A stretch of DNA of 64,000 nucleotides from an uncultured Lachnospiraceae bacterium (GTDB lineage: Bacteria; Bacillota; Clostridia; Lachnospirales; Lachnospiraceae): the NCBI GenBank assembly GCA_905233955.1, contig CAJOFQ010000006.1, forward strand, positions 6,706 through 70,705, given 5' to 3'. The number at the start of each line of letters is the position of its first letter. The stretch's first letter is position 1. The notes beneath the pieces were generated by a model. It did not search any database, had not been told where the DNA came from, and saw only the letters and a program-made list of their open reading frames with translations. The translations under genes were made by a program, and so were the position numbers. Positions 20,456-61,727 of the stretch are shown here, in pieces.

Positions 20456-22690
20456 GTGTTTACAAGAAGTGTCTTTTGTCGTGTACTAATAATACTTTGT
20501 ATAATTATGATACTTTTTACCACGGCACTCACCACATTATCCTACCGCAGGATGCAGGCGGATACATATGTACACGACGGGGTACTTAATACAGTAAGCA
20601 CCGTAAGGAAGCTTAATTATTCATTGAGTTTTGGGAAGCCTCTGGACAAATATTACGGTCTTAAGGAACTTCTTGAAGAGGTAGAAGAGCTTTCCTGGGA
20701 TATCACAGGTGTTTGTATCACAGATCTTGAAGGAAATGTCATAGAAAGCACCGGTGAAGAGATCAGTGGTATCACATTACAAAATCCCGATAACGAGTAC
20801 CTGGTAAGAAGGGACGGAGTTTATGCCTTCGTCCCTTTTGATGCGGGTAATATCATAATCAAACAGAACATAAGTGTGATCAATGACCGGACAAGGGATT
20901 ATCTTAAATTTTTATGGGGCATTGATGCATTGATCCTGCTGGCGGTAATTGTGTCAGCACTGATTACATCCCTTGTCGCGTCCTCTAATGGCATATCATT
21001 AAAGCGTTTCAAAATAACAAGTATTCTGATACTGGTAACGGCGCAATCCCTCCTGGGTGTTTTGTCCATGCGCCATCTTGATAATTCCTATCAACAATCT
21101 ATAGCAAGGATTGCCGAGACTACCTCTCTTACCGTGGAGAGGGATATCAATGCAGTTATAGAAAAGGGTGTTCCTTATGGACAGCTTAAGGGTCTTGATG
21201 GCTATCTATCTAATCTGGTAGACGATATACCGGAGCTTTCCAATCTGTCGCTGGGAATGCAGACCCAGGCTACTCAAAATGACATGACAGGCTTTGATCT
21301 TGATATTGACGGTATGGACAGTGGTGCTGTCAGCCTTCTATGTTACTATGACAAAGAGCTTATACATTCACAGAGGATCAACAATATTATTGATATTCTT
21401 ATCCTTGTTTTGATAACTGTCTTTATAAGTCTGGAGGCGTCTACATTTCTGACCAGGCATATGGAAATGAAAAGTGAACGAAAAAAAGGTCAGCTTTATC
21501 TGCCCGGCTTTCGGCTTTTTGTCTTTATACAGGGAATTACATTTACATTGGATGTAGGCTTTTTCTCCGTCTTGAGTGCAAAGCTTTTTAGAGCGATGGA
21601 GCTGCCCCAGTCCATGTCTTTTTTAAGCGGTATGCCAAACACCATGTACTCGGTGGCTGTGCTCATAGGCCTACTGGGGTGCAGCTCTTTGATACGCCGT
21701 TTTGGTATGAAGCGAATGCTGATCTTCGGTATAGTAATGGGCATCGTTGGTTATGTGCTGTGTGCCCTTGCCGTCAACCTGTCGCTTTTGATAATGGCAC
21801 GCTTCGTCTATGGCTTCTGTGACGGTATCATAATCAATTCCATACGGCTTTATGCCTCGTCTCAATCTGACCCCAAGATGCATACCAGGATTCTGGTGGA
21901 ATACATGGCTGCCGCCAATCTTGGAGTAAGCTGCGGCGTAGTGATCGGAGGTCTGATAGCTGATGTGGCATCCTATACCTTTGTTTTTGTTACAGGTGCG
22001 CTGCTTGGTATAGTATGTCTCTTTCTCATATTGTTTGCAGGCTTCCCTGACAGGCAGGAGGATGGCGATAAGATGTCATTCCTTACGGCTCTTAAGGAAA
22101 TGAAAAAACCAAGGGTCGCGCTTTTTATGATTGCAGCAGTCATTCCTGTTTACATTGCCACATTGTTTGTTGCGTTTACCTTTCCGCTGTTTGGTGACGA
22201 AGCGGGCTTTTCCAATTCCATGGTCTCCGGTTGCCTGATGCTTAATTTTATTATAGTTGCTTATCTGACGGATCCCATCTCTGATTGGGTAATAAAGAGA
22301 GTCAGACCGGATATAGCTATGGGAATATATATGCTGCTTCAGACCGCCAGCATAGGTGTTTTTGTGTTATCAGGGAGCGTTTGGGCTGCTATACTGGCAC
22401 TTGTTCTGACAAGTCTGTGGGATTGCTTTGGCATGGTGGTAATGGACCTGGCACTTGATCATGTGGAGGGTACATCCACGGAAAAATGTACGCTCCTGCA
22501 AATGCTATTCGGAAAATTTGGTCTGGTCGTAGGACCGGTTGCCATCACTTCATGGCTGGGCAAGGGAGCAGCGGGCGCAACCGGCGTCATCGTTATAATA
22601 ATGCTGGTTGGAGCTCTAATATACGGAAGTTCCCTGGTATTCGGTTACCATTCACAGCTTCGTAAGCCGGATGAAGGAATTAAGGAGTAG
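20456..22690 (+). CDS. Fusion protein: N-terminal membrane-anchored extracytoplasmic sensor-like region (~330 aa) + C-terminal MFS transporter (~12 TM)
   Basis: GTG start 7 nt after GGGAGGAG, only 24 nt after the ftsH stop. TM1, then a ~125-aa loop with Cache/PDC-like character (..ITDLEGNVIESTGE..), then 2 TM, a second ~110-aa loop, then an MFS-like body. Confidence 0.75.
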   Translation: MFTRSVFCRVLIILCIIMILFTTALTTLSYRRMQADTYVHDGVLNTVSTVRKLNYSLSFGKPLDKYYGLKELLEEVEELSWDITGVCITDLEGNVIESTGEEISGITLQNPDNEYLVRRDGVYAFVPFDAGNIIIKQNISVINDRTRDYLKFLWGIDALILLAVIVSALITSLVASSNGISLKRFKITSILILVTAQSLLGVLSMRHLDNSYQQSIARIAETTSLTVERDINAVIEKGVPYGQLKGLDGYLSNLVDDIPELSNLSLGMQTQATQNDMTGFDLDIDGMDSGAVSLLCYYDKELIHSQRINNIIDILILVLITVFISLEASTFLTRHMEMKSERKKGQLYLPGFRLFVFIQGITFTLDVGFFSVLSAKLFRAMELPQSMSFLSGMPNTMYSVAVLIGLLGCSSLIRRFGMKRMLIFGIVMGIVGYVLCALAVNLSLLIMARFVYGFCDGIIINSIRLYASSQSDPKMHTRILVEYMAAANLGVSCGVVIGGLIADVASYTFVFVTGALLGIVCLFLILFAGFPDRQEDGDKMSFLTALKEMKKPRVALFMIAAVIPVYIATLFVAFTFPLFGDEAGFSNSMVSGCLMLNFIIVAYLTDPISDWVIKRVRPDIAMGIYMLLQTASIGVFVLSGSVWAAILALVLTSLWDCFGMVVMDLALDHVEGTSTEKCTLLQMLFGKFGLVVGPVAITSWLGKGAAGATGVIVIIMLVGALIYGSSLVFGYHSQLRKPDEGIKE

Positions 22691-22701
22691 ATGCAAAGAT
22701 T

Positions 22702-23874
22702 ATGAGAAAAAGATATACAATAATCGCAGCAGCCAGTGCGCTGTGTCTTATTATAACCATATCAGCCTGCGGTATCACATCTTTGGGTTTTGGCGGTACT
22801 AATGTTGTTAATGCCGCTCCATTGGTCAGGATCGGTTATGTCCAGACAAGAGAATACGGTCCCTTCACCCAGGTTCTTTTAGCTACAGCCAGAGAGTTAG
22901 TGGCTCAAGGCTGTCTTTCCAGGTCATTTTTGGATAAATATAAGGATGCTAATTTTGAAGAGCATTTCAGCGACGGAGATACAAAAAAGCTGTGGGATGA
23001 TATATGTGATGCGACGGTGGAAGGCGCTTCATACCAGTTTTCACCGGAGGCATTTTTTGATATGAATACCATGTCGGAGGATGAATACCCTTCAATGGTT
23101 AATCGCAGTGATGTGGATATTACTTTTACAATGGGGACAGACCCAAGTGTGTATTTTTTTGAAAATGAAAAGAAAAACAAATTCATGAGTCTTTATGCTG
23201 CGGATCCCATACAGTCCGGAATTGTAAAGAGTACGACTGAGCGTTATACGGATAATTCTTATGCACTTATGGATCTGACGCCCTATCTTCGACAGCTTGA
23301 TGCGGGCTATAAGTTTTTGAAATTTAAAAAACTTGGCGTAGTTTATGAAGATTCCCGGGCTGCCTATGATTATTCGGACATAAGGGAGATCGAGCAGAAA
23401 GCGAAGGAGCATGGATTTGAGGTGGTCTATGAGCATGTCAATGAGCCTGTGTCTGAAGATGATTTCGAACGCTATTACAGTGAATTAAAACAGGCCTATC
23501 GCAGTCTTGTGGACAAGGGGATTGACTGCCTTTATGTTACCATATCCTCTATCAATTATGAGGAAAAAATGCAGGAGCTTTTAGATGATGCGATCATTCC
23601 GGCAGGGGTTTATTCCCTGGCTCAGGATGATGTGGCTCCTGTGGCATATGGAGTTTTGTTCGGGATGAGCATAAGCGATGCCGAGGAAGTGGCTGCCTAT
23701 GTATTCAAACAGATCAGGCTGTATGCCGAAGATGGGGTACCCTTTGACGAGCTTGATATGGTATATGAGTGTACGCCTAAGATTGCACTGAATTATACTA
23801 CGGCACAAAGGGTAGGTTTCGACCTTACTTTTGAAGATCTTCAACTGGTGGACAGGATCTATAAGAATGAGTGA
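22702..23874 (+). CDS. Orphan SBP-like lipoprotein (distant ABC_sub_bind/PF04392-like fold)
   Basis: Signal peptide with lipobox ISAC. VRIGYVQTREYG.. and LKFKKLGVVYEDSRAAY.. resemble the two lobes of the SBP encoded at 13845. No adjacent ABC permease or ATPase. Confidence 0.55.
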   Translation: MRKRYTIIAAASALCLIITISACGITSLGFGGTNVVNAAPLVRIGYVQTREYGPFTQVLLATARELVAQGCLSRSFLDKYKDANFEEHFSDGDTKKLWDDICDATVEGASYQFSPEAFFDMNTMSEDEYPSMVNRSDVDITFTMGTDPSVYFFENEKKNKFMSLYAADPIQSGIVKSTTERYTDNSYALMDLTPYLRQLDAGYKFLKFKKLGVVYEDSRAAYDYSDIREIEQKAKEHGFEVVYEHVNEPVSEDDFERYYSELKQAYRSLVDKGIDCLYVTISSINYEEKMQELLDDAIIPAGVYSLAQDDVAPVAYGVLFGMSISDAEEVAAYVFKQIRLYAEDGVPFDELDMVYECTPKIALNYTTAQRVGFDLTFEDLQLVDRIYKNE

Positions 23875-26800
23875 GAGTAATAGAATGAAAATTAAAAAGA
23901 CTTTATATCCGGACCGTATTAGATCTGCCATAAAAAGCTTTGGCAAAAACCTGGCTTTATCCTTTGGGGACAGAAGATACAGCTATAACGATCTGGATAG
24001 TATTACGGGGCGATTGGCTGCGTATCTGATATCACAGGATATCGGCTGCGGGGATATCGTCTCTGTTCTTATATCCCGAAATGAATATATTACCATTGCG
24101 CCTCTTGGCATAATCCGCAGTGGTGCAGCATATCAGCCTCTTGATATCTCACATCCCACCGATCGTATCCGCAGTATGATTGAAAATGCCGGATCACAGA
24201 TTGTTATAGTGGAAAAAGAGTATGAGCATCTGTTGGATGATGTGAACTTTGGAACTGACAGAAAAAAGCTCTATATCGAAGATATACCGCTCCTGCCAGA
24301 GCCTGAAGAAGGTCCCTGGCCGTATGCCGATCCGGAGGATGACTTTGCAATATTGTACACCTCAGGTTCCACGGGAGAACCCAAAGGGATAGAGATAACA
24401 CATAGAAATATAATTAGCCTTCTGGACTGGTATATCGACTATTATGGTGTGGATGAAAACAGCCGGATAGGTCAGCATACCAGCTATGTTTTTGACCCTG
24501 CCATTGCGGAATCCATGCTGCCTCTGGCTGCAGGAGCTGCAATTTTTATTATTCCGGAGGAGATCCGGACGGATCTGTTTTTGCTGGATCGCTTTTATAA
24601 TGAAAACAAAATAACCCACGCATCACTGACGACCCAGCTGGGGCGTCAGTTTGCCATGCATATGGAGGGAAGAACCCTTAAGCATCTTGTGGTAGGCGGA
24701 GAGGCATTAATGTCTGTTGCGCCTCCAAAGAATTACACCCTCCACAACGGTTATGGTCCTGCAGAAGGAACCTTACTGATTACCATATTTGCTGTTTTGA
24801 AGGAATATCCCAACAAGGTTCCTCTGGGCAGCCCTCTTCCAGAGGTTAAGATCTATCTTTTAGATGAGAAGGGCAGACAGGTTTCTGACGGCCAGCCGGG
24901 AGAGCTGTGCTTTGCAGGAGCTCATGTTACAAAGGGCTATCTGAACCGCCCGGATCTTACCGCAAAGGTTTATACCGTCAACCCATTTTCTGACGATCCC
25001 GAATACAGCAGGCTGTATCATACGGGGGATCTGGTAAAAAAGGACGCAGATGGATACTACGAATATCTGGGAAGGATCGACCGGCAGGTTAAGATCCGTG
25101 GATTTCGTATCGAGCCAGCCGAGATAGAGGCTATTCTCAAAGGCTGTGAAGGCATAGATGACGCAGTTGTGGTTCCCCTGGATATGGGAAATGAAAAAAT
25201 GCTGGCGGCCTATTATCTTTCAAATGCTTCAGTGGATGAGAAACTGCTGTCGGATCTGATATTGTCCCAAAAGCCATCCTACATGCTGCCTTCGTTTTTC
25301 ATACATATGGATTCTTTTCCGCTTACCATTAACGGGAAAATAGATTATAACGCTCTGCCAGGACCCATGCGCGAAGCAACCAGCCAATACGAGGAGCCAA
25401 AAAGTGATACTGAAAGGGTTTTGGCCGGGCTGTACCGCGATATATTGGGCATAGAACATGTTGGACGGCAGGATAATTTTCTGCACCTTGGCGGTACATC
25501 CATGTCGTCGGCGATACTTTTATATAATATTTTCGATGCCTTTTCCTGCCGGATCGGTATAAGGGATATAATGGAGCATCCCGTACTTTATGATCTGGCA
25601 GACAGGATCGATGAGAAGCTTTTGTCAAAGGAGACTGATAATATCAGCTTCGAACAAAAATTACTGCCCTTGCAGGCTGAGTACGATGTAAGCTATTCGC
25701 AAAATCGTATGTTTACCGCCCAGGAGCTTTTGGGTTATGACGATCCTACATATCTTTTGCGACTAAAAATATCTATAGATGGCGCATTTGACAAATCAAG
25801 GATACAGAATACGATAAAGGCTTTAATTCTGCGTCATGAAAGCTTAAGGACAGAATTTTTCATTTCACAAGACAGCTTAAAGCAAATTATAGTAAAGCCC
25901 ACAGAAGCATGGCTTAATGACGCGGTTATTAGAACCGAAGACAGGGACCTTTTCCCTGGATTTTCTATGGAGGAAGCACCACTTTTTGCATGGAGCGCAT
26001 CTGAAAATGAGATTGAATTTCAGTGGCACCATATCATAAGCGATGGAGTCAGCAGTTCGCTTTTTGCACAGGAATTTATTGAGGCTTATAACGGTAATAC
26101 CCTCCCGCCCCTTAGGGTTCATCAAAAAGAATACGCCGAATACGAAAAACAATACATGGCTTCCCCGCTATATAAAAAGAGCCTGGATAGCTGGAGAAAT
26201 TATTCTTCCGATCATGTTGATGCAGAAGAAATCAAGCTGCCCCAGGATAATACATTTTTACCGGGGATGGAGCGTATAGCAGGCCATTTTAAGAGTGTTC
26301 TTCCAAAATCGCTTTCCGAAGAGATCAATATTTTTTGCCATGAAAAAAACATAACGGTATATATGTTTTTGCTTTCTGTTTTTTCCATACTGCTTCACAG
26401 GTATACCCGGATGGAGAAGTTGATACTTGGAACGGTTATGGATGGCAGAAATGAACCCGGTACTGATAAGCTGCAGGGTATGTTTGTAAATACGCTGCCC
26501 TTATTTATTACAGTAAGTGATGATTATTCCATATCAGATTTTTACAGTAAGATTTCTGAGATTGTACTTTTTTCCATGGAGAATCAGTCCGTACCATTGG
26601 AGGAAATTGCAGACGCTTTTTCCAGAATGGGAGGATACCAAAGGACTTCCCGTGGGAGCTTATTATTTGATTATTTATTCGTACTTCAGAATTTTAAGAA
26701 CCAGGTTGAGGATATTGACGGATGTGAAGTAAGCCTGGAATATGGTGACGGCGGCAGAGCGATGTACGATCTGACCCTTGAAATGGAGGAAATGGAGGAT

Positions 26801-29800
26801 GGATTCCACTGTGATTTTGAATATTGCAGGGGGTTGTTTTCTGAGGAAAGTATCCGAGTATTTGCTCATCATTTTGATGTGCTGCTTTTAAATTGCCTAA
26901 GTTCAAGTGACAAACAGACTATAGGCTCTCTATCTGTCATTGATGAAAATGAACAAAAAAAGCTGCTCTATGATTTTCAGGGAGTGCCCTTGGATGAAAG
27001 AGCTTTGGTATATACAGTAGTTGATCTTTTGAGGGATCGTGCAAGAGAAAATCCAGACAGCACTGCTGTGGTTTTTTGTGATGAAGCTCTGTCCTACAGG
27101 GGATTGTGGGACAAATCAGGTTTACTTGCCAATAAGTTAAATCAATTATTTGACCAAAATACAGAAAATCATGCAGTCATTTTCGCAAATCGGGGAATAT
27201 CCATGATTACCACAATATGGGCTGTACTTCGGGCAGGGGGAGCGTATGTCCCGGTGTCGCCGGAGTATCCTGATGAGCGGATAAGCTACATACTTGATGA
27301 CTGTGATGCTGTATGTGTTATAGAGTGTGACGCTAAGGTACCTGATGCCGTAAGAGAACTTTTGTCACAGAGGAATATTCCTGTAATCTCAGGGAACGAC
27401 TTAGGTGATACAGTTGAGTTTCATGATGGCTTGCAACATGAGGTGCAAATACATGAAAATAAGCTTCCGGGCTATCAAATACATGGCTCAAACGCTTCAG
27501 GGATAATGCTTCAAAAGGACTCCGAGGCTTATATGATATATACCTCCGGAACTACCGGAGAGCCTAAGGGAGTTGTAGTAAGTCATGGCAACCTTTCAGC
27601 CCTGCTTTTTGCCTACAATGATATATACAAACTGACACCACAGGATGCTGTGCTGCAATTTGCGGATTTTGTTTTTGATCAATCCGTATGGGAGATCTTC
27701 CACATTCTGACAGTTGGCGGAACACTTTGCATGATTACTTCCGATATGGCCCGTGATCCGCAAAAGCTGTCTTATTATTGTAATAAAAATCATGTCACGG
27801 TATCCATGCAGACACCGGGTTTTTTGCGGCTTTTAGACCCTGATGAATTCAAGGGTATAAGGCTTGTAGATGTGGGTGGAGAGGCTCCTGATTATAAGCT
27901 TCTTAAGGCGTGGTCAAAGGGCAGAACCGTTTTAAACACCTATGGCCCCACTGAGACTACGGTAAATGCCGCAAGCTATATCTTCAGTGAAAATGGCAGG
28001 CAATTAACGGCTGAAAAAGACAATGTTCCCATAGGAAAACCGATTGACGGAACACGCATTTATATTTTAGACGGGGATCGGCTGTGCGGCATTGGTATGC
28101 CGGGAGAGCTGTGTATTGCCGGTGCCCAGGTGACCCTGGGATATTACAATAGACCACAGCTTACCGGGGAGAAATTTGTTAAAGATCCGTTTTTTGACGG
28201 AGCAATGTACAGGAGCGGTGATCTGGCAAGGTACCTTCCTGATGGAAATATCGAATTTTCAGGCCGCATAGACGATCAGATCAAACTTCGGGGATACAGG
28301 ATAGAGCTGGGGGAAATTGAATCCGCCATTAGAAGGGTTCCCGGAATAAAGGATGCCGTTTGTACCCTGCAGGATACCGGTGATAATAAGACCCTGTGCG
28401 GGTATTATATTTTAAATGATACAGATACTGCTGTTACGGAGGATGAGCTTCGACAGCTTTTATCGGAGCAGCTGCCCTCATACATGGTTCCGGTTCATTT
28501 GATGCCCCTTTTGGAATTTCCACTTACAGTATCCGGCAAGATTAATAAAAGGGCTCTGCCAAAATTCGATATGGTCTGGCAGGATGGTGACGAGGGTGCC
28601 AAAACCGATATAGAAAGAGACCTTGCGGATGCCTTTGCTGCTGTACTGCAGCTTGAGCGGGTAAGTGTTACTGCGGATTTTATAGCACTTGGAGGCGATT
28701 CCATTAAAGCGATTCGTATAGTCTCGCTGCTCAGGGAAAAGGGCTACCATCTTAGTGCAGGTCATCTCCTGAAAAACAGTACAATAAGGTCAATTGCACC
28801 TCTTTTAAAAAAGACGGAGGGCATTTCCTATAAAGAGTTTGACCATGTATCGCCCACTCCGGTAATGAAGCTGTTTTTTGCTGCCGATATGCCAAATTCC
28901 CATTGGTATAATCAGTCAGTTATGCTTTTGATGAAAAATTATCCGGGCGAGAATGCCCTTAATAATGCCTTATCCGATCTGATCAGTGCTCATGGATGCT
29001 TAAGGATGATACGGAAGGATGGGGGTATTGTAATAAGGGATATTTCCAAAATGCCAAGTGTCAAGCTTGCTGTCTTCGAAAATTGCACTAAGAGCAAAAG
29101 AGAGGATATCTGCACCCGTTTACAATCCTCTATGGATCCGGACAACGGCATTGTAATGCAGGCAGCCATATTTAAAAATGACAATGAACACAGACTGTTT
29201 CTGGCCTTTCACCACCTTGTTATAGACGAGGTGTCATGGGGGATAATTCTGGAGGATCTTGACAGGCTTTTAAACCACGAAGCTTTGTATGACAGGACAA
29301 TATCATTTGGTGAATGGTCAAAAAAGCTTTGGTCCTATTCTAAGTCAGATGATTTTCTTTCTGAGAAGGCTTACTGGATGAGACAGTACAAAGAGCTAAA
29401 AAAACATGACAAGGACATACAAAGCTGGCTTTCATCTTATGAAGACTTAAATACTCAAAAAACCGGTTTTTCATCCTTATCTCTGTCGGTTTCAGATGAT
29501 ATGGCGCAAAAGCTTTCTTCAATTGCAGCATTAAAATATCAGTCCGGTATGGACGCTTTTTTGCTTGCAGTTTTGATACATACGATTAAATTACACGACA
29601 ATATTTCTTCAATTTCTATTCAGATGGAAAGTCATGGAAGGGGCAATATTGGCGATGTGCATTGCGATCGTACAGTGGGCTGGTTTACTGCTTTGTATCC
29701 GGTTTTGTTTGATGTGGCGGATACATTTGACGAGCAGATCGTTGTTGTAAAAAAAGCTCTTTTGGATGTACCAAACTACGGAATCGGATACGGATTGTTA

Positions 29801-32800
29801 TACGATGATCTGTTTCGGCAGGGTGGTATTGTATTTAACTATCTGGGTAATGAAAGAAAAAATACCTATGATAATTTTGGATTTGCAGGGGAGAGCAGCG
29901 GACTTGATATGGATGCCGCCAATGGTGATCCATATACCATTTCCATAGACATCCGTCAGGATGAGCAGGGACTTTTCATAGATGCCTGGTATGACAATGC
30001 TTTTGACGGCGTAGAGATCAAAGGACTTTTGAACTTCTATAAGTCAAAGCTTGAGGAAATATCAGAGCTTGTTCCTGACAAAAATAAGATCTATGCTCCC
30101 AATGATCTTTGTGCGGACTCCGGGATGTCACTTTCGGACTGGTACAAATTGACACAGAGGTTTTTGCCGGAAAGTGTTATGGCAATCGCCCGTCTTACAC
30201 CGCTGCAGCAGGGGATGCTCTACAGATATATCGCCGAGCCGGAGGGCAGGGCGTATTTCCTGCAGGATAAGCTTACGATATCAGGCGTATTGCAAAAAGA
30301 AAAGCTTAAAGCTGCACTTAAATTATTGTCTTTAAGATACGACGCGTTAAGAACAGTTTTTTTATACGACAATCTGGATGAACCCTGGCAGATAATATTA
30401 AAGGAACGCACTCCGGAATTTGTGGATATGTCAGATTTAGCTTTTTCTGATGTGCTTGCAATTGACGGGAAAAGAGGTTTTTCCCTGACAAAAGATCCGC
30501 TTATGCGCTTAACAGTCTGCAAACAGAAAAATGGTTCAGCAGAGATTTTGATCTCCATGCACCATATGATAACGGATGGCTGGAGTTTTCCGATTTTAAC
30601 CCGCAAGCTGATGGAATATTACAGGGATCTGTGCAGCGGTGCGGATGAGAGTATCATTGCCGGGCAGGTAAAAAAAGAGGCAGCAGATAACTGTTCCTTT
30701 ACAGATTATCTGAGATATTGCGCAGGATTAAACAGACCCAAAATCACGAAAAAATGGGTAGAATATCTGCAGGGAGCAGATGAAGGCGCGGCTCCTTATG
30801 TTTTTGATCCAGATAATAGTGATACTTTTATTTTCGCAGGGCGAAGCTTTCGTATCAGCAGGGAAATGGAAGATCGTATCAGGGCGTACACAGTCCAAAA
30901 TCATATTACCACAAGCAGCTTTTTCGGAGCGCTTTGGGGAATATTGCTGGGTTTTGAAAGCGGTGTGGAAAATGTAGTTTTTGCAGAGACTCTTTCAGGG
31001 CGCAATGCGGATATTGCCGGAATTGAGTCGGCGGTTGGAATATTCATACATACTATTCCTGTTTGCATCAGGCTAAGGGACAGTAAAACTGTGCTTGATC
31101 TCATGAAAAAAAGGCAGGAGGACTACATATCCATGCAGCCCTATGAGAATGCTGCCTTAAGTGAGATCGGCGCTGCAACAGGCTTTGGTTCTGCGCTGAT
31201 AAGGTCGTTATATGTATACGAGAATTATCCGGTGGAGGATGAAGCTGATTGGTATCATATAAATGGAATTCATGAGGAAGTGGATTACGCGATTACCTTC
31301 TGTGTGGAGGAAACAGATGGTATATCTTTGAATCTGCTGTTTGATGAGAATAAATATCACAGAGATTATATCGGACTTTTGATGGACAGGCTGATATATC
31401 TGGCACATCAGGTTCTGACGGATGAAGCCGTTACTGTTTTTTCCCTTGATCGTATTACACCAGAGGAGCAGAAACTAACGCTTTTAAATCTGGCAGGGGA
31501 GAATATGGATTTTCCGAAAAAATCCTTCCCCGAAATGTTTTTTGACCAGGCAAAAGACGACCCATCCAGGAGCGCTCTTTTGATGGATGGAAAAACCATA
31601 AGCTACGGCAAGCTCTTGAATGCTTCATGCGGACTGGCAAAAGAGATTGGACCAGGGGAAGAGAGATTTATTGCTGTAATGGCTGACAGAGGTTTTGAAC
31701 TTATAGCAAGCCTCATTGGAACGATGCTGGCAGGAGCAGCTTATGTGCCGTTGGATCCTGATTATCCTGTAGAGAGAATCAGGTATATACTTAATGACTG
31801 TGTTCCTACTTGTGTGCTTTATTATGTTAAGGAAGAACAGCCTGATGTCAGAAATTTGTTTGAGGAATATGATATTCCTGTTATTTCCACACCCATTGAT
31901 ACATTTGAATCCAAAGATCATACCTTTAAGCCAGGACAAAAGCTTATGTGTCGTCTGGCATATATGATCTATACATCAGGGACTACCGGCGAACCTAAGG
32001 GCGTTGAGATTGAACACTGCTCCCTGTCGGATATGATCTATGCCCATGAGGTTCGTTTTGGCAGCTTGTATAATGATACGGTTCTTTTTATGTCAAATTT
32101 TGTTTTTGACGCGTCTGTGCAGCAGATATTTACGCCTCTTGCCCAAGGCGGCAGAGTATGTATCATAACAAAAGAAAGGATGAACTCGTCAAAGGAGATC
32201 GCCCAATATTGCAGGGACAACAATGTTACCTTTATTGGTGCGACTAATGCGCTGCTTAGAATACTTTCCCCGGCGGATTTTGATGGTATCAGGGTTCTAA
32301 GCATCGGAGGTGATGAGGCGGATCCTGGGCTGTTTGAAAAATGGTCTCATTATTCTAAGCTTATTATCAATGACTACGGGCCCACAGAAGCTACCATACA
32401 TGCCATTTCCCATGCTTATACATCCGGGGAGAAAAGGCCTGTGCCTCTGGGAAAACCCTATCCAAATAAGCGGATATATATTATGCAGGGTGACAAGCTG
32501 TGCGGTATAGGGCAGCAGGGGGAGATCTGTATAGGTGGAAAGGGTTTGGCCAGAGGATATCACGGCAGACCGGAGCTTACAGACAGGCATTTTGGACCGG
32601 ATCCCTATTCTGATGGCAGGATATATCGTACAGGGGATCTGGGATTGTATCGCCCGGATGGGCAGGTGTTATTCAAGGGCAGAAATGATTCTCAGGTCAA
32701 GATCCGGGGATTTAGAATAGAATTACAGGAGATTGACAGCTGCCTTATGTCCTATGACGGAATAAAAGATGCTGTGACGATATGCAGGCAGGAAAAGAGC

Positions 32801-34105
32801 AGAGAAAACTACCTGATATCCTATGTGACTTCGAACAATAGGATTGAAATTAAAAAAGTCACTTCATATTTGAGAAGTCATTTGCCGGCATACATGGTTC
32901 CTGCATTTGTTATCCCCGTTGACTTTATTCCACTGAATTTCAGTGGTAAGGTTGATGTGGGAAGGCTTCCCGATCCTAAGCCCGATAAAAGAATTGAGTA
33001 CGAAAAGCCTCAAAATGATCTTGAAGAAAGAATTGCCGGATTATTTGAAAGGATCCTTGGCAGGACAAATGTAGGCAGAAATGATTCCTTTATCGACCTG
33101 GGAGGAACATCCCTTGACATGATGAGGCTTTTGTCAGGACTTAACGATCCGGGGATTCGTCTGGCTGATATAGCAAGTAACCCTACACCTGAAAGTTTAA
33201 GCGGCATTCTTCGAAACAGATATCAAAAGCAGGAAGGATGTCTTTTGCTCTGGGATGGCGATCCATATGTACCGCAGATATTCTGTGTCCCACCATCGGG
33301 AGGCATGTCATTATGTTATCTTGAGCTTTTCAGACAGATAGGATACAGGGGGCGGATCTATGGTCTTACTGACGAGAAATATAAGAGGTTCGGCAGTATG
33401 ACCATTGAAGAATTGGAAGGATATGATATACTTCGAGATGATCTGTGGGAAGCGAATCTTTTAAGCTATATGGAATCCATCCAAAGTGTCTTTAAAGCCG
33501 GTGATATCCTGATAGGCTATTCACAGGGAGGAGCGGCTGCCCATGAGCTGGCACTTAGGTTAGAAGGAATTGGCAAACCCTGTGGAAGGCTTATTATGCT
33601 GGAGGCAGTACCCTTTGGAACAGATGAATCCCGGGTGTTTGAGGCTGAAAGCGAAAATGACAGACTAAAAGCGGTAGAGAATATCTTTTTTGGCAGCGAG
33701 GTTTATAGAGATGACGAGGATGTAACAGAAATATCCTTGAAGGAAAGACTCTTGGAAATGCTGGAAGGGCATGGAAGCGCTTTGGATGAGGCCATGCTGC
33801 ACGCTTTGTTTGAAACATATCTGGTATACTCAATCAACACACTCCATCCGCTGACAATCAGCGGAAGAACCAGGGCACGGATCGACTCTGTTCTTTTGCC
33901 TGGTGATGGAGAAAAAGAGGCAGCCCAAATTATATTAAGTGACAAGGATCCTTGGATTGACTATACTTTAAAAAAGGGAGAATCCTGCAGACTGGGACAT
34001 GATGGCAATGAGCATCTGGTATTTCTGTCAAAATACAAAACACAGATAGCCGCACAGCTGAAAAAATGGCTGGAAACAGATAAGTGGAGCGAAAAAAATG
34101 CATAA
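23867..34105 (+). CDS. Trimodular non-ribosomal peptide synthetase, A-T-C(LCL)-A-T-E-C(DCL)-A-T-TE
   Basis: A3 cores are at ~24353 (LYTSGSTGEPKG), ~27533 and ~31963 (MIYTSGTTGEPKG). A8 motifs GRxDxQVKIRGFRIE and A10 Lys occur three times. Carrier Ser codons are at 25499 (LGGTS), 28700 (LGGDSIKAI) and 33110 (LGGTS). C1 has HHIISDG at ~26027. E-domain motifs are PVMKLF, HHLVIDEVSW (~29210), ESHGRG, RTVGWFTALYP, PNYGIGYG and FNYLG. C2 has LTPLQQGMLY and HHMITDG (~30560). TE has GYSQG (33514-). Start is ATG 23867, overlapping the upstream stop, or alternatively ATG 23885. Confidence 0.95.
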   Translation: MSESNRMKIKKTLYPDRIRSAIKSFGKNLALSFGDRRYSYNDLDSITGRLAAYLISQDIGCGDIVSVLISRNEYITIAPLGIIRSGAAYQPLDISHPTDRIRSMIENAGSQIVIVEKEYEHLLDDVNFGTDRKKLYIEDIPLLPEPEEGPWPYADPEDDFAILYTSGSTGEPKGIEITHRNIISLLDWYIDYYGVDENSRIGQHTSYVFDPAIAESMLPLAAGAAIFIIPEEIRTDLFLLDRFYNENKITHASLTTQLGRQFAMHMEGRTLKHLVVGGEALMSVAPPKNYTLHNGYGPAEGTLLITIFAVLKEYPNKVPLGSPLPEVKIYLLDEKGRQVSDGQPGELCFAGAHVTKGYLNRPDLTAKVYTVNPFSDDPEYSRLYHTGDLVKKDADGYYEYLGRIDRQVKIRGFRIEPAEIEAILKGCEGIDDAVVVPLDMGNEKMLAAYYLSNASVDEKLLSDLILSQKPSYMLPSFFIHMDSFPLTINGKIDYNALPGPMREATSQYEEPKSDTERVLAGLYRDILGIEHVGRQDNFLHLGGTSMSSAILLYNIFDAFSCRIGIRDIMEHPVLYDLADRIDEKLLSKETDNISFEQKLLPLQAEYDVSYSQNRMFTAQELLGYDDPTYLLRLKISIDGAFDKSRIQNTIKALILRHESLRTEFFISQDSLKQIIVKPTEAWLNDAVIRTEDRDLFPGFSMEEAPLFAWSASENEIEFQWHHIISDGVSSSLFAQEFIEAYNGNTLPPLRVHQKEYAEYEKQYMASPLYKKSLDSWRNYSSDHVDAEEIKLPQDNTFLPGMERIAGHFKSVLPKSLSEEINIFCHEKNITVYMFLLSVFSILLHRYTRMEKLILGTVMDGRNEPGTDKLQGMFVNTLPLFITVSDDYSISDFYSKISEIVLFSMENQSVPLEEIADAFSRMGGYQRTSRGSLLFDYLFVLQNFKNQVEDIDGCEVSLEYGDGGRAMYDLTLEMEEMEDGFHCDFEYCRGLFSEESIRVFAHHFDVLLLNCLSSSDKQTIGSLSVIDENEQKKLLYDFQGVPLDERALVYTVVDLLRDRARENPDSTAVVFCDEALSYRGLWDKSGLLANKLNQLFDQNTENHAVIFANRGISMITTIWAVLRAGGAYVPVSPEYPDERISYILDDCDAVCVIECDAKVPDAVRELLSQRNIPVISGNDLGDTVEFHDGLQHEVQIHENKLPGYQIHGSNASGIMLQKDSEAYMIYTSGTTGEPKGVVVSHGNLSALLFAYNDIYKLTPQDAVLQFADFVFDQSVWEIFHILTVGGTLCMITSDMARDPQKLSYYCNKNHVTVSMQTPGFLRLLDPDEFKGIRLVDVGGEAPDYKLLKAWSKGRTVLNTYGPTETTVNAASYIFSENGRQLTAEKDNVPIGKPIDGTRIYILDGDRLCGIGMPGELCIAGAQVTLGYYNRPQLTGEKFVKDPFFDGAMYRSGDLARYLPDGNIEFSGRIDDQIKLRGYRIELGEIESAIRRVPGIKDAVCTLQDTGDNKTLCGYYILNDTDTAVTEDELRQLLSEQLPSYMVPVHLMPLLEFPLTVSGKINKRALPKFDMVWQDGDEGAKTDIERDLADAFAAVLQLERVSVTADFIALGGDSIKAIRIVSLLREKGYHLSAGHLLKNSTIRSIAPLLKKTEGISYKEFDHVSPTPVMKLFFAADMPNSHWYNQSVMLLMKNYPGENALNNALSDLISAHGCLRMIRKDGGIVIRDISKMPSVKLAVFENCTKSKREDICTRLQSSMDPDNGIVMQAAIFKNDNEHRLFLAFHHLVIDEVSWGIILEDLDRLLNHEALYDRTISFGEWSKKLWSYSKSDDFLSEKAYWMRQYKELKKHDKDIQSWLSSYEDLNTQKTGFSSLSLSVSDDMAQKLSSIAALKYQSGMDAFLLAVLIHTIKLHDNISSISIQMESHGRGNIGDVHCDRTVGWFTALYPVLFDVADTFDEQIVVVKKALLDVPNYGIGYGLLYDDLFRQGGIVFNYLGNERKNTYDNFGFAGESSGLDMDAANGDPYTISIDIRQDEQGLFIDAWYDNAFDGVEIKGLLNFYKSKLEEISELVPDKNKIYAPNDLCADSGMSLSDWYKLTQRFLPESVMAIARLTPLQQGMLYRYIAEPEGRAYFLQDKLTISGVLQKEKLKAALKLLSLRYDALRTVFLYDNLDEPWQIILKERTPEFVDMSDLAFSDVLAIDGKRGFSLTKDPLMRLTVCKQKNGSAEILISMHHMITDGWSFPILTRKLMEYYRDLCSGADESIIAGQVKKEAADNCSFTDYLRYCAGLNRPKITKKWVEYLQGADEGAAPYVFDPDNSDTFIFAGRSFRISREMEDRIRAYTVQNHITTSSFFGALWGILLGFESGVENVVFAETLSGRNADIAGIESAVGIFIHTIPVCIRLRDSKTVLDLMKKRQEDYISMQPYENAALSEIGAATGFGSALIRSLYVYENYPVEDEADWYHINGIHEEVDYAITFCVEETDGISLNLLFDENKYHRDYIGLLMDRLIYLAHQVLTDEAVTVFSLDRITPEEQKLTLLNLAGENMDFPKKSFPEMFFDQAKDDPSRSALLMDGKTISYGKLLNASCGLAKEIGPGEERFIAVMADRGFELIASLIGTMLAGAAYVPLDPDYPVERIRYILNDCVPTCVLYYVKEEQPDVRNLFEEYDIPVISTPIDTFESKDHTFKPGQKLMCRLAYMIYTSGTTGEPKGVEIEHCSLSDMIYAHEVRFGSLYNDTVLFMSNFVFDASVQQIFTPLAQGGRVCIITKERMNSSKEIAQYCRDNNVTFIGATNALLRILSPADFDGIRVLSIGGDEADPGLFEKWSHYSKLIINDYGPTEATIHAISHAYTSGEKRPVPLGKPYPNKRIYIMQGDKLCGIGQQGEICIGGKGLARGYHGRPELTDRHFGPDPYSDGRIYRTGDLGLYRPDGQVLFKGRNDSQVKIRGFRIELQEIDSCLMSYDGIKDAVTICRQEKSRENYLISYVTSNNRIEIKKVTSYLRSHLPAYMVPAFVIPVDFIPLNFSGKVDVGRLPDPKPDKRIEYEKPQNDLEERIAGLFERILGRTNVGRNDSFIDLGGTSLDMMRLLSGLNDPGIRLADIASNPTPESLSGILRNRYQKQEGCLLLWDGDPYVPQIFCVPPSGGMSLCYLELFRQIGYRGRIYGLTDEKYKRFGSMTIEELEGYDILRDDLWEANLLSYMESIQSVFKAGDILIGYSQGGAAAHELALRLEGIGKPCGRLIMLEAVPFGTDESRVFEAESENDRLKAVENIFFGSEVYRDDEDVTEISLKERLLEMLEGHGSALDEAMLHALFETYLVYSINTLHPLTISGRTRARIDSVLLPGDGEKEAAQIILSDKDPWIDYTLKKGESCRLGHDGNEHLVFLSKYKTQIAAQLKKWLETDKWSEKNA

Positions 34106-35894
34106 CAATCACAAAAAAGTAAGTCTAATAACAAAATTCATTGTAATGTTTACTGTCTTTGGAGTAATATCCACGCTGGTAAGCGGGATATTTACCTTTA
34201 TGACACAGACCAGGATCTACCACAATGAATGCGAGAGTAATCTTAAAAATATCACAGATCAGTTGAATTCAATGATACAGGATGACGGCGAGGATTTCAT
34301 TGATGTTTTGGATTACTTCAAGGAGCACAGAGACGAGATGCATATTAAGCCGGAATCAGCCGGTGATTATCAGCCGGAGCTTTTGGCATTTCGTAAATTA
34401 TTCGCCCAAAAATATCCGAATAAGACTTACGGAGTGGATATTACTTTTTCCGAAATGGATGATGATCTGCAGAAGGTTTATGCAGAATATAAGGTGGATT
34501 ACTGGATGACAATGTTTTCTCAGGCGTCAGAATCCTTTAACCTTGCGTACACCTATTTCATCTATCCTGATCCTGAGCCGGACATCACTTATTTTATCGA
34601 TCCCCTTCCGGAAACAAAGGAGGTCAATGGTGAAGAGTACTATTCACTTGGATTTCACGGTTTTGAAGATCCCGAAAAATATAAAATGGTGTGGGAGGCA
34701 TGGCACACCGGCAAGAATCCCTCGGGCTTCGATGTCTTTGATAATGAGTTCGGATATACTTACGCTTATTATTCTCCGGTCTGGATTGACAGTGAAGAGA
34801 TAGGTCTTGTCTGTGCTGAAATATCCGTGGAAAGGGTTCACAGCACCATAATACACGATGTGCTGCTCTTAAGTACAGGGATGATCGTTGCTATCGTGAT
34901 CGGCATTTTTATTATGGTCATGTTGCTGCGCAAGATCTTTTTGTACAGGATTTTAAATCTCGAAAAAAATATTGCGCTTTACTCGAATTCCAAGGATGTA
35001 TCCCTGGCCGGAGCTATACAGCAGCAGGAACAGGGGGATGATGAGATCAGAAGCCTGTCCGACCAGTTTGCGTCCATGATTACTGAGTTAAAGAATTATA
35101 TGGACAATCTGCAGCAGGTTACTGCTGAAAAAGAGCGTATTGGAGCTGAGCTTTCCGTGGCTACCACTATCCAGGAGGGTATGTTGCCGCGTATTTTCCC
35201 ACCCTATCCTGACCGAAAGGAATTTGATCTTTACGCATCTATGGATCCTGCCAAGGAAGTGGGAGGAGATTTTTACGATTTCTTTATGGTGGATGAGGAT
35301 CATATTGCGCTGGTAATGGCTGATGTATCCGGCAAGGGTGTCCCTGCGGCGCTTTTCATGGTAATTGCCAAGACTCTTATTAAAAATGCCGCCCAGATGG
35401 GAAAAGACCCTTCTGAAACTTTGGAATACGCCAATGACCAGCTCGCCGACAATGAAGGACAGATGTTTGTTACTGTATGGATGGCAATAATCGAGATATC
35501 CACAGGCAAGGGAATAGCAGCCAACGCCGGACATGAGCATCCTGCCCTCAGGCATGAAAATGGCAAATACGAGCTTGTGGTTTACAGACATTCTCCGGCA
35601 GTGGCTACGATGGAGGGTATTCCCTTCCGTCAGCACGAGTTTGAGCTTCAGCCGGGAGATTCGCTGTTTGTATATACTGATGGTGTGCCGGAGGCGACTG
35701 ACGCCCATGACGAACTTTTTGGAACGGATCGTATGATAGAGGCCTTGAATCAGGATCCTGACGCCTCCCAGGATGTGGTGCTTGCCAATGTACGAAAGGC
35801 AGTGGACGCCTTTGTTAAGGATGCTCCGCAGTTTGACGATCTTACCATGCTGGGTTTCAAGTATTACGGGGTCGAAGGGAAACATGATTCATGA
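34098..35894 (+). CDS. Transmembrane receptor-type PP2C (SpoIIE/RsbU-like) Ser/Thr phosphatase with extracytoplasmic Cache-like domain and HAMP-like linker
   Basis: TM1 (aa ~12-35), a ~220-aa loop (..GYTYAYYSPVWIDSEEIGLVCAEISV..), TM2, an amphipathic linker, then PP2C motifs GGDFYDFF (~35262), ADVSGKGVPAALFM and DGVPEA. The ATG overlaps the NRPS stop by 8 nt. Confidence 0.85.
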   Translation: MHNNHKKVSLITKFIVMFTVFGVISTLVSGIFTFMTQTRIYHNECESNLKNITDQLNSMIQDDGEDFIDVLDYFKEHRDEMHIKPESAGDYQPELLAFRKLFAQKYPNKTYGVDITFSEMDDDLQKVYAEYKVDYWMTMFSQASESFNLAYTYFIYPDPEPDITYFIDPLPETKEVNGEEYYSLGFHGFEDPEKYKMVWEAWHTGKNPSGFDVFDNEFGYTYAYYSPVWIDSEEIGLVCAEISVERVHSTIIHDVLLLSTGMIVAIVIGIFIMVMLLRKIFLYRILNLEKNIALYSNSKDVSLAGAIQQQEQGDDEIRSLSDQFASMITELKNYMDNLQQVTAEKERIGAELSVATTIQEGMLPRIFPPYPDRKEFDLYASMDPAKEVGGDFYDFFMVDEDHIALVMADVSGKGVPAALFMVIAKTLIKNAAQMGKDPSETLEYANDQLADNEGQMFVTVWMAIIEISTGKGIAANAGHEHPALRHENGKYELVVYRHSPAVATMEGIPFRQHEFELQPGDSLFVYTDGVPEATDAHDELFGTDRMIEALNQDPDASQDVVLANVRKAVDAFVKDAPQFDDLTMLGFKYYGVEGKHDS

Positions 35895-37789
35895 CCAAGG
35901 TTATAGAAGAACAGCTTAGCCGGCTTCCTGATAAGCCCGGAGTATATCTTATGCACAATGCCAGGGATGAGATCATCTACGTTGGCAAGGCAAAAAGCCT
36001 AACCAAACGGGTGCATCAGTATTTTCAGCCTTCTCATGACGAGGGAGTAAAAAAACAGCAGATGGTCCGCCAGATCCACTATTTTGAATACATAGTGTGT
36101 GATTCTGAGCTGGAGGCTCTGGTCCTTGAGAATAATTTCATCAAGGAACATCGTCCCAAGTATAATACTATGCTCAGGGATGACAAGACCTATCCCTACA
36201 TCAAGGTAACAACCTACGAGGATTATCCAAGGGTTGTGCTGGCCAGAAGAACTGAAAAGGACGGCTCCAAATATTTCGGACCCTTTCCCAGCGGCGGGGC
36301 TGTACACGAGACGATTGAACTGGTTCAGAAATTATTCCATCTTAGAACCTGCAACAGGCAGTTTCCGCAGCAATTTGGCAAGGAACGCCCCTGTTTGAAT
36401 TTTCACATGCAGCAGTGTGACGGGGTGTGTCAGGGAACCATATCCAAGGAAGATTATGGCAAAAGAATTGATCAGGCGCTGGATTTTTTAAACGGTAATG
36501 ACAGCAGTATTCTGGCGGATCTTAACGAAAAAATGGAGCAGGCTTCTGCCAATATGGAATTTGAAAAGGCGGTTACATATCGTGATCTGATAAAAGCGGT
36601 CAAGGTGTGCATGAGCCGCCAAAAGGTTACGAGCTTTGACAATCTTGACAAGGACATTATTGCCCTGGCACAGGATGAAGAAGACGCCCTGATACAGATA
36701 TTTTTCATCAGAAGCGGCAAGATGATCGGCAGGGAGCATTTCTTTATGAATGTCTGCCTGGATGATGAAAAAGACAGCGTAATGGCCGCTTTTTTGCAGC
36801 AGTATTACAGCAAGACGCCGTTAATTCCAAAAGAGATATACATATCCCTTTCAGTGCCCGAGGAGGATATGCTAACCCAGTGGCTGTCGGAGCGCAGGGG
36901 AGCTAAGGTGTATCTTCATACTCCCAAGCGCGGAGCCAATAATCGTCTGGTAAAGATGGCTGAAAAAAATGCCCTTATGACCCTTTCCGCAGATAAAGAA
37001 CGGCTAAAGCGTGAGGAAGGCCGTACAATAGGCGCTATGAAGGAGATTGCTGCCATACTTAATCTTCCCGGGATTATGAGAATGGAGGCCTTTGATATTT
37101 CAAATACCAACGGCTATGAATCAGTGGGATCTATGGTAGTATTTGACAAAGGAAAACCTCTAAGAAGCGCTTACAGAAAATTCCGTATAAAATCGGTCAT
37201 AGGTCCCAATGACTATGCCTCCATGAAGGAGGTTCTTACAAGGCGTTTTACCCATGGACTTAAAGACAGGGATGAATCTGCCGGGGAAGGTTTTTCCCAT
37301 TTTCCCGACATTATCATGATGGACGGAGGAAAGGGACAGGTTCATATAGCCCTGGAGGTCCTGCATGAATTAGGACTTGACATACCGGTGGCCGGAATGG
37401 TCAAAGACGATCATCACCGTACCAGAGGACTTTATTATAACGATGTGGAGCTTCCCATTGACAAGCATTCCGAGGGCTTTAAGCTGATAACCCGTTTGCA
37501 GGACGAGGCTCACAGATTTGCCATTACATATCATAAATCCTTAAGAGGCAAGGCGCAGGTTCACAGTTTTTTAGATGACATTCCGGGCATTGGTCCGGCC
37601 AGGCGCAAAAGCCTTATGAGAAGCTTTGCATCCTCAGACGATCTGAAACAGGCGTCCATTGAGGAACTTGAAGCGGTTGATGCCATGAATCACAAGGCGG
37701 CTGTAAGCTTGTATGAATTTTTGCATCAGGAGCAGATATCTTCTGCCGCAGTTGGTCAGACCGGCGTGGAGGAGAAAAGTACGCTTTGA
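35891..37789 (+). CDS. uvrC: Excinuclease ABC subunit C
   Basis: GIY-YIG N-terminus (PGVYLMHN..IIYVGKAKSL), UVR motif, endonuclease V and (HhH)2 C-terminus. The ATG overlaps the upstream TGA (ATGA). Confidence 0.95.
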   Translation: MTKVIEEQLSRLPDKPGVYLMHNARDEIIYVGKAKSLTKRVHQYFQPSHDEGVKKQQMVRQIHYFEYIVCDSELEALVLENNFIKEHRPKYNTMLRDDKTYPYIKVTTYEDYPRVVLARRTEKDGSKYFGPFPSGGAVHETIELVQKLFHLRTCNRQFPQQFGKERPCLNFHMQQCDGVCQGTISKEDYGKRIDQALDFLNGNDSSILADLNEKMEQASANMEFEKAVTYRDLIKAVKVCMSRQKVTSFDNLDKDIIALAQDEEDALIQIFFIRSGKMIGREHFFMNVCLDDEKDSVMAAFLQQYYSKTPLIPKEIYISLSVPEEDMLTQWLSERRGAKVYLHTPKRGANNRLVKMAEKNALMTLSADKERLKREEGRTIGAMKEIAAILNLPGIMRMEAFDISNTNGYESVGSMVVFDKGKPLRSAYRKFRIKSVIGPNDYASMKEVLTRRFTHGLKDRDESAGEGFSHFPDIIMMDGGKGQVHIALEVLHELGLDIPVAGMVKDDHHRTRGLYYNDVELPIDKHSEGFKLITRLQDEAHRFAITYHKSLRGKAQVHSFLDDIPGIGPARRKSLMRSFASSDDLKQASIEELEAVDAMNHKAAVSLYEFLHQEQISSAAVGQTGVEEKSTL

Positions 37790-61724: not shown

Positions 61725-61727
61725 ATA

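Follow-up and report, generated by a model that had tools for sequence, protein, structure and literature searches.

Between ftsH and uvrC, the genome of an uncultured Lachnospiraceae bacterium (assembly GCA_905233955.1, contig CAJOFQ010000006.1, positions 6,706 to 70,705) carries four closely packed genes, all on the + strand. They encode a long protein of the major facilitator superfamily (MFS; 744 aa, 16 transmembrane (TM) helices; positions 20456-22690), a lipoprotein resembling a solute-binding protein (SBP; 390 aa; 22702-23874), a nonribosomal peptide synthetase (NRPS; 3412 aa; 23867-34105), and a membrane sensor phosphatase of the PP2C type (598 aa; 34098-35894). An earlier note made from the letters and open reading frames (ORFs) of this DNA, here called the sequence-only reading, had proposed that the four genes make, export, and sense a small peptide. 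The question raised by the locus is whether these genes belong together and, if they do, which kind of system they would form. Coordinates are those of the 64-kb stretch of DNA that was analyzed (the window), which matches rumen-type metagenome scaffolds; genes were placed by ORF calls, and their junctions were read off the sequence letters.

Recurrence of the four-gene block

Species-representative genomes were scanned with an alignment of the first condensation domain of the NRPS, chosen because 10-kb flanks from there span all four genes, and the resulting loci were compared by tblastn. The scan yielded 16 related Lachnospiraceae, Eubacterium, and Clostridia loci, derived from rumen, goat, roe deer, and rabbit metagenome-assembled genomes (MAGs) and from Butyrivibrio sp. 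INlla16 and MC2021. The MFS, SBP, and NRPS genes occurred in the same order in 14 of 14 loci with enough sequence, and the phosphatase gene directly followed the NRPS gene in 9 of the 13 loci that reached that far, as well as in the window. To this extent the genes that had been proposed as one unit are co-conserved among relatives. The phosphatase gene was absent from the three most divergent NRPS-type loci.

Neither ftsH nor uvrC was detected beside the module in any related locus by tblastn, and the flanking genes varied from one locus to the next (tRNA methyltransferase, Na/H antiporter, MatE, a sugar ABC system, subtilase, ABC exporters, and others). Because the flanks differed everywhere and ftsH and uvrC never adjoined the module, its position between these two genes, correctly described for this DNA, is incidental and was seen in this lineage only. 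Individual look-ups placed the MFS-SBP-NRPS set of Butyrivibrio sp. ob235 at an unrelated locus and found, in two MAGs, the NRPS and phosphatase genes followed by quite different downstream genes. Membership of the phosphatase in a uvrC neighborhood was rejected, as nine other genomes have it after the NRPS and lack uvrC at that place; by gene order, it travels with the NRPS and not with uvrC. Judged from these comparisons, the four genes form an operon-like module that is self-contained and portable and belongs to Lachnospiraceae of the rumen and the herbivore gut. It represents a widely shared NRPS cluster of Butyrivibrio-like bacteria, and the cultured carriers Butyrivibrio sp. MC2021, INlla16, and ob235 allow its direct study.

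In the window, the GTG start of the MFS gene lies 24 nt after the stop of ftsH (18362-20431, + strand; Pfam FtsH_ext, AAA, and Peptidase_M41), the upstream flank outside the module, and is preceded by a ribosome-binding site, GGGAGGAG. An 11-nt gap leads to the ATG of the lipoprotein gene, whose stop overlaps the NRPS ATG (at 23867, in an ORF open from 23831) by 8 nt. The next junction, between the NRPS stop and the phosphatase ATG, is likewise an 8-nt overlap, and the phosphatase stop overlaps the start of uvrC (35891-37789, + strand; UvrC by Pfam), the downstream flank outside the module, in an ATGA. The head-to-tail packing given in the sequence-only reading was reproduced in every coordinate, gap, and overlap; its remark that no terminators separate the genes is true, but trivially, because there is no intergenic room. 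The block had also looked AT-rich by eye. Its lower GC content is real but small and not significant (0.438 versus 0.455 ± 0.028 for the other genes of the window), and a compositional island is unsupported because the difference is less than one standard deviation of those genes. As had been read from the letters, the NRPS is the sole biosynthetic enzyme of the block, which lacks a tailoring gene, MbtH, phosphopantetheinyl transferase (PPTase), and transcription factor. No PPTase was found in the 64-kb window, and no PPTase, STAS, or RsbW-like protein among its annotated ORFs, the ORFs at 59-63 kb and small ORFs lying outside the Pfam scan. A PPTase may be encoded elsewhere in this genome; among related loci, an Sfp-type PPTase gene stands directly after the phosphatase gene in L014, and one lies nearby in L009 and L024.

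Predicted architecture of the four proteins

Pfam searches with the whole NRPS and with pieces of it revealed the layout A1-T1-C1-A2-T2-E-C-A3-T3-TE, comprising three adenylation (A; AMP-binding plus AMP-binding_C), three carrier (T; PP-binding), three condensation-type (C), and one thioesterase (TE) domain, with the middle C-type domain corresponding to epimerization (E). All domains lie on the + strand. A1 (23933-25336) and T1 (25436-25609; LGGTS, Ser 545) are followed by C1 (25673-26968; HHIISDG), A2 (27032-28540), and T2 (28619-28798; LGGDS, Ser 1612). The E domain (28871-30067) has a Condensation-family match, the motifs HHLVIDEVSW, ESHGR, RTVGWFTALYP, and FNYLG, and a weak match to TIGR01720. 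After it come the second condensation domain (30188-31474; HHMITDG), A3 (31538-32950), T3 (33026-33205; LGGTS, Ser 3082), and TE (33275-34102; GYSQG at aa 3217; Pfam Thioesterase, E 4e-7). The carrier serines (GG[TD]S), both HHxxxDG motifs, the E motifs, and the GxSxG of the TE are all intact. The trimodular order that had been proposed, with a product containing a D-residue, is confirmed at the level of domains, and a D-residue at position 2 is supported because the middle C-type domain carries E-type motifs; the layout specifies a predicted L-D-L tripeptide.

Specificity codes were extracted by alignment to the GrsA sequence, which itself yields DAWTIAAICK. The codes were DPASVGGLLK for A1, DQWMDGTVNK for A2, and DAQGSGDIHK for A3, all three beginning with D and ending with K (the Asp235 and Lys517 positions). 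When 13 NRPSs were compared (the window and 12 related loci; ∼45% identity overall, collinear orthologues at 39-62% identity), the A2 code was DQW[MS]DGTVNK in all 13, and the species-variable A1 and A3 codes formed at least six combinations. A fixed D-residue flanked by species-variable residues, as predicted here, fits a recognition element with variable "dialects" but does not prove one. In L023 (18678-19115) and L025 (18716-19168), a FabZ-like hotdog protein is encoded after the NRPS; these two loci also have two ABC exporter genes ahead of the MFS gene and an A3 code that resembles the A2 code.

Pfam recognized MFS_1 only on aa 391-694 of the long MFS protein (E 7e-25), and its AlphaFold2 model had a pLDDT of 89.4 and a pTM of 0.88. 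The N-terminal module (aa 1-345; 20456-21490, + strand) adds four TM helices, along with two alpha/beta domains predicted to be extracytoplasmic, in a tandem duplication. The outside domains span aa 47-137 and aa 247-298 according to modeled secondary structure and hydropathy, and the positive-inside pattern predicts that both of these small domains are outside the cell. The two halves of the module aligned by hhalign with a probability of 98% (E 1e-13); since they are homologous, the module is a tandem "TM, outside domain, TM" hairpin. An exhaustive search with aa 1-345 retrieved 217 cluster representatives, mostly of 700-850 aa. MFS_1 was present in 43 of the 56 representatives that were sampled, and none of the 56 had a Pfam family on the N-terminal part. 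The first outside domain contains the signature motif KLNYSLSFGKPLDKYYG (20609-20659, + strand; family consensus KIEYAvKYGKPLxNFYG), and G60 and K61 are invariant in an alignment of 59 family members. The remainder of the protein, a 12-TM core (21491-22690, + strand), resembles DHA1 exporters. Its top Foldseek matches were NorA, MdfA, SPNS2, VMAT2, SotB, and LmrP (TM-score on target up to 0.83; 0.76-0.83 for NorA and MdfA), and the protein had weak NCBIfam matches to efflux MFS families. By this structural and weak profile similarity, the modeled core resembles proteins of efflux or antiport.

Several relatives depart from this arrangement. Two long proteins, P0219 (1176 aa) and P0336 (1240 aa), have four hairpins, or two copies of the N-terminal module, before the MFS core. 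In L065 (77-1868), the hairpin module (325 aa) and the MFS core are two genes with a 20-nt overlap; this arrangement is a genuine gene split or else the result of a frameshift in a short contig. Locus L038 (13146-15727) encodes a 399-aa protein consisting of the hairpin module without an MFS core; its gene overlaps that of a 5TMR-LYT-SpoIIE phosphatase by 4 nt, and both sit just downstream of a set encoding alanine racemase (Alr), SBP, long MFS, and a GNAT-like protein. We also looked for SBP-MFS fusions as Rosetta-stone evidence and found none that held: relatives longer than 900 aa owe their length to a duplicated N-terminal module, except for two seeming extensions that are high-GC ORF artifacts.

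The lipoprotein has a signal peptide with an ISAC lipobox and no Pfam match at E ≤ 0.001. Its ∼90 homologue clusters come almost entirely from Lachnospiraceae, Butyrivibrio, and Eubacterium, and some homologues at 38-59% identity carry PF04392. When compared with the PDB, the family profile matched 6HNI (E 1e-5), 3LKV (E 0.008), and 3LFT (E 0.09), the receptors matched being those for amino acids, CD0873 (Tyr), VC_1101 (Phe), and SP1069 (Trp). On the basis of these homologues and profile matches, the lipoprotein is probably a divergent SBP of the PF04392 (ABC_sub_bind) type. No genes for an ABC permease and ATPase accompany it in the module or adjoin it in the 14 related loci. It had been taken for an orphan SBP; its conserved partner is the MFS protein, and this pair is widespread without the NRPS. 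A canonical PF04392 SBP (351 aa) is encoded with a BPD_transp_2 permease and an ABC ATPase at 13845-16744, ending ∼4 kb before the module begins. The module lipoprotein is barely alignable with this protein, which lies 7 kb upstream of it (hhalign E 0.086); by these sequence criteria, the genome has both a classical ABC-linked PF04392 protein and a divergent MFS-linked one.

In the phosphatase, a SpoIIE/PP2C domain was detected on aa 399-588 (Pfam, E 6e-43), and the AlphaFold2 model (pLDDT 83.8) comprises a TM/stalk helix, a 220-aa outside domain, a second TM helix (TM2), a HAMP-like linker, and the PP2C domain. The predicted extracytoplasmic sensor domain (aa 33-254; 34194-34859, + strand) lies between TM helices at aa 14-32 and aa 255-277 and consists of helices followed by an antiparallel sheet, which is PDC/Cache-like by topology only. 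TM2 and the HAMP-like linker (aa 255-362; 34860-35183, + strand) are modeled as helices; PF00672 is present in some homologues, and partial NCBIfam matches were obtained to the TM/HAMP regions of WalK, DgcN, and SiaA. The catalytic domain (35223-35864, + strand) was assigned to the RsbU/SpoIIE/SiaA class from its top Foldseek matches (SiaA 6K4E, RssB 3F79, Rv1364c RsbU 3KE6, and SpoIIE 5UCG) and its invariant metal-binding aspartates (D391, D409, D528, D580, and D581). The sequence-only reading had described the module as sensor-rich, with Cache-like loops on the phosphatase and the MFS protein. Extracytoplasmic domains are indeed predicted, one on the phosphatase and two on the MFS protein, but no profile backs the Cache-like label (neither protein had a Pfam Cache match), and the supposed loop of the MFS protein is instead made of the small alpha/beta domains of the duplicated hairpin module, to which no Pfam family corresponds. 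A common origin of the phosphatase sensor domain and the outside domains of the MFS protein was likewise rejected, as the hhalign probability was ≤22% and involved a TM helix only.

Genes for candidate signaling partners are found near the module in some relatives. A 210-aa protein, a STAS protein, and a HATPase_c_2 protein are encoded directly upstream of the MFS gene in L014; the 210-aa protein and HATPase_c_2 follow the phosphatase in L009 and L015, with a GGDEF gene further on; and a STAS protein stands beside module-type genes in L007. Some phosphatase homologues have a fused HATPase_c_2 domain. In L021 (2446-4581) and L022 (2781-4916), a 711-aa dCache_1-HAMP-SpoIIE protein is encoded directly upstream of the MFS gene, and the module is therefore bracketed there by two different PP2C sensors.

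The SBP/long-MFS pair and explanations of the module

A metagenome scan with the signature motif of the long MFS yielded 28 loci, which were analyzed with local hidden Markov models; an SBP gene adjoined the long-MFS gene in 23 of them. The pair also occurs without an NRPS in L004, L007, L033, L034, and L064, and a distant lipoprotein homologue (39% identity) is encoded beside a 756-aa MFS with no NRPS nearby. In Butyrivibrio sp. AE3004 the order is STAS protein, phosphatase (50% identical to that of the window), an unknown 488-aa protein, alanine racemase, SBP, and long MFS. Genome GCA_040308005 has phosphatase, 488-aa protein, SBP, and MFS, and GCA_037137075 has HAMP-cyclase, GNAT, alanine racemase, MFS, SBP, and MFS. 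In the metagenome loci, alanine racemase or a ∼461-aa 5TMR-LYT-SpoIIE phosphatase is encoded just upstream of the pair. The signaling enzymes found with the pair were of three kinds: a sensor-HAMP-PP2C of the window type (L007, L064), a 5TMR-LYT-PP2C (L039, L042, L045, L049, L051), and a HAMP-cyclase (L033, L046). On this comparative evidence, the SBP/long-MFS pair is conserved far beyond NRPS loci. Genes for membrane transducers of the PP2C or cyclase type usually flank it, as do genes for small-molecule enzymes that produce D-amino acids or amides.

The putative biosynthetic genes of these loci vary. A ∼237-aa weakly GNAT-like protein (E 1.6e-4) is encoded after the long MFS in 19 metagenome loci, for example at L040:7565-8278, and this family follows the long MFS almost everywhere outside NRPS-type loci. 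The conserved 488-aa protein lies between the phosphatase and the SBP/MFS pair in the NRPS-free loci L007 (11810-13276) and L064 (11785-13251), where it is a candidate enzyme in the place of the NRPS. Neither of these proteins, nor the 210-aa protein, gave an informative match in Pfam, NCBIfam, or PDB sequences. To judge by gene neighborhoods, the role of "maker" can be filled by different genes: an NRPS with an E domain, alanine racemase together with the GNAT-like protein, or the 488-aa protein with or without alanine racemase. Just downstream of an SBP-MFS-GNAT-like set, a YcaO protein is encoded in L050 (13045-14883) and a 603-aa GlcNAc-2-epimerase-like protein in L053 (13220-15031) and also in L057.

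From sequence and models, we consider a make-export-sense loop with a species-variable peptide to be the best explanation of the module, and we hold it tentatively, at somewhat less than even confidence. The NRPS would make the peptide and the MFS core would export it. Outside the cell, the lipoprotein would bind the peptide, or a related D-amino-acid compound, and could report its occupancy through the outside domains of the MFS protein, the sensor domain of the phosphatase, or both. The RsbU/SiaA-class PP2C domain might then dephosphorylate a STAS-type partner-switching protein and so alter gene expression or c-di-GMP output, the whole constituting an autocrine or quorum-type loop.

Several points weigh against such a loop. 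SBPs classically serve uptake rather than sensing, the PF04392 proteins of solved structure act as receptors of ABC importers for free L-aromatic amino acids, and by sequence the SBP of the module is too divergent for its ligand class to be predicted. The A-domain codes of the NRPS match none that we know of, and no substrate is assigned. The phosphatase is missing beside the NRPS in 4 of the 13 loci (Butyrivibrio sp. INlla16 and three others), and tblastn found no STAS, RsbW, or sigma partner among the testable ORFs of the 64-kb window. Orthologues are less similar in the phosphatase sensor (51%) than in the PP2C domain (73%) and less similar in the MFS loops (39-50%) than in the core (65%), but faster divergence of outside domains is normal for sensors and proves nothing. 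Transport direction, ligand, and signaling are all inferred.

A broader form of the same idea, which we regard as rather doubtful, is that the SBP and the 16-TM MFS are an undescribed extracytoplasmic receptor/transport unit at the core of cassettes for a new type of bacterial self-signaling by small D-amino-acid molecules, with peptide "dialects" specific to each species among rumen Lachnospiraceae. The unit would then be the first SBP-partnered MFS, or an MFS "transceptor." The makers (NRPS with E domain, alanine racemase plus GNAT-like protein, 488-aa protein) and the outputs (sensor-HAMP-PP2C, 5TMR-LYT-PP2C, HAMP-cyclase) would be swapped around it.

The main rival to the make-export-sense loop reverses the direction of transport. 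The lipoprotein would capture an amino-acid-like compound for uptake by the MFS protein, and the phosphatase would do nothing but regulate. The compound would be a substrate of the adjacent enzyme, here the NRPS module with the invariant code and the E domain, elsewhere alanine racemase or the GNAT-like protein. Such an importer would add a fourth class to the secondary transporters that depend on a binding protein. The usual role of SBPs in uptake and the amino-acid import function of the solved PF04392 members both argue for it. So does the arrangement of the genes: those for SBP and MFS are adjacent or overlapping in >40 loci, often with overlaps or gaps of a few nt, and in L033 and L034 one SBP gene stands between two long-MFS paralogues, like paired importer permeases. 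Alanine racemase and the E domain, moreover, both act on an amino acid, possibly an imported one, and precursor uptake has been proposed as a role of the SBPs encoded in biosynthetic gene clusters (BGCs; PMC7849407). However, the nearest structural matches of the MFS core are DHA1-type exporters and antiporters, and no SBP-MFS fusion was found (in the longer relatives, it is the N-terminal module that is duplicated). Nor is any MFS protein known to use an SBP: binding proteins are described as serving ABC, TRAP, TTT, and, since 2025, GltS carriers, with MFS not mentioned among them (PMC12344293). Uptake alone would also leave the recurrent linkage to PP2C or cyclase genes unexplained. We judge import to be unlikely, while taking it seriously.

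Less probable again is an ordinary secondary-metabolite cluster, in which an antimicrobial or metal-binding peptide would be exported by the MFS protein for release or self-resistance, the lipoprotein would serve re-uptake or immunity, and the phosphatase would be a neighboring regulator whose ligand has no link to the product. No BGC layout is commoner than an NRPS with an MFS exporter, and 11% of transporter-bearing BGCs include an SBP (PMC7849407). ABC exporters, a C39-peptidase ABC transporter, and a hotdog-fold protein or Sfp-type PPTase are encoded near some related loci, and 4 of the 13 loci lack the phosphatase. Against this, the module has no tailoring or resistance genes, and the siderophore-type Peripla_BP_2 and FecCD proteins (a criterion from PMC7849407) are absent from it and its relatives. 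The SBP/long-MFS pair and its PP2C link persist in many loci that have no NRPS and are therefore not accessories of this BGC. With no siderophore-type uptake genes, and with accessory genes that occur independently of the NRPS, the module is less likely to be a simple cluster for an antibiotic or metallophore.

Cell-envelope surveillance, in which the pair would sense or recycle D-amino-acid wall material, the L-D-L tripeptide would mimic or modify it, and the PP2C would report the state of the envelope, is suggested by the recurrence of alanine racemase beside the pair, by the genes for Mur ligase and FemAB in its neighborhood in L004 and L064, and by the L-D-L pattern expected from the E domain, but the wall-related neighbors are inconsistent across loci and the A-domain codes do not resemble those known to us for Ala, Glu, or Lys. 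We consider this explanation very improbable.

Known systems and the remainder of the window

All components of the module come from known superfamilies, and SBP-dependent carriers, transporter co-sensors, and partner-switching phosphatases are existing concepts. The sequence-only reading had not recognized the combination as a described system, and in the papers that could be searched, we found no described system of this combination and no description of the module, the SBP/MFS pair, or the N-terminal hairpin module; the NRPS itself may still match a characterized cluster.

As in the TRAP, TTT, and TAXI-GltS systems, genes for an SBP and a secondary transporter are neighbors, in many cases with translational coupling, across many taxa (PMC12344293). 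In contrast to those systems, the partner here is an MFS protein with a duplicated hairpin module rather than an elevator-type carrier, its SBP belongs to the PF04392 type known elsewhere from ABC importers, no fusions were found, and the core is exporter-like. If it holds, such a conserved partnership of SBP and MFS would bring the largest superfamily of secondary transporters into the group of SBP users, or place an MFS protein in a receptor role.

In UhpC-UhpB, DctA-DcuS, and BceAB-BceS, transporters act as co-sensors of membrane signal transducers, and UhpC is a sensor of the MFS family. The module shares with them a transporter-like protein that is genetically tied to a membrane signaling enzyme. 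It differs in that its output is a PP2C or cyclase instead of a histidine kinase, the SBP is a constant partner, and the MFS protein carries outside domains of its own. The PP2C fold is closest to those of SiaA, RssB, RsbU, and SpoIIE, a likeness to the RsbU/RsbV/RsbW and SiaABCD systems that extends to the order of TM sensor, HAMP, and PP2C, as in SiaA, and to the STAS, HATPase_c_2, and GGDEF genes near some relatives. Unlike in those systems, no partner genes were found in the window, and the genes linked to the phosphatase are those of an NRPS and the SBP/MFS pair; with respect to SiaA, the phosphatase scores 55 bits against a model cut-off of 700, and its sensor domain is unrelated. The hairpin module and its linkage to PP2C or cyclase genes offer an entry point into how outside signals may reach the partner-switching phosphatases of anaerobic Firmicutes.

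SBPs mediate signal perception in LuxP-LuxQ, ChvE-VirA, and TorT-TorS. By analogy with these systems (PMC10443332), a ligand-loaded SBP could dock on the outside domain of a transducer. Those pairs, however, use histidine kinases or chemoreceptors, whereas the SBP contact proposed here is hypothetical. Small NRPS clusters are known in Firmicutes, such as the dipeptide-aldehyde NRPSs of gut Clostridia. Like these and AusA, the aureusimine synthetase, the NRPS of the module is a single short enzyme with few or no tailoring genes, and AusA is its best NCBIfam model match (1479 bits, below the 2500 cut-off). It differs from AusA in having three modules, an E domain, and release by a TE instead of a reductase, as well as the constant company of an SBP and a long MFS.

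Elsewhere in the window, the ORF at 50813-52111 returned no record on look-up, and the ORF at 57696-58709, within a set at 57696-63286, had no Pfam match. The region from 57000 to 64000 has a GC content of 0.38-0.41, below that of the module and of the rest of the window. At 52101-57331, LarB-like (AIRC) and LarC-like (Ni_insertion) genes are followed by one for a 1051-aa FIST-HisKA-HATPase-receiver-Hpt hybrid kinase. Nearly all genes of the 64 kb are on the + strand. The window contains uvrB (3627-5606), uvrA (7462-10338), and uvrC on the same strand, with mreB, a gene for a GGDEF-EAL regulator, transporter genes, ftsH, and the module lying between them.

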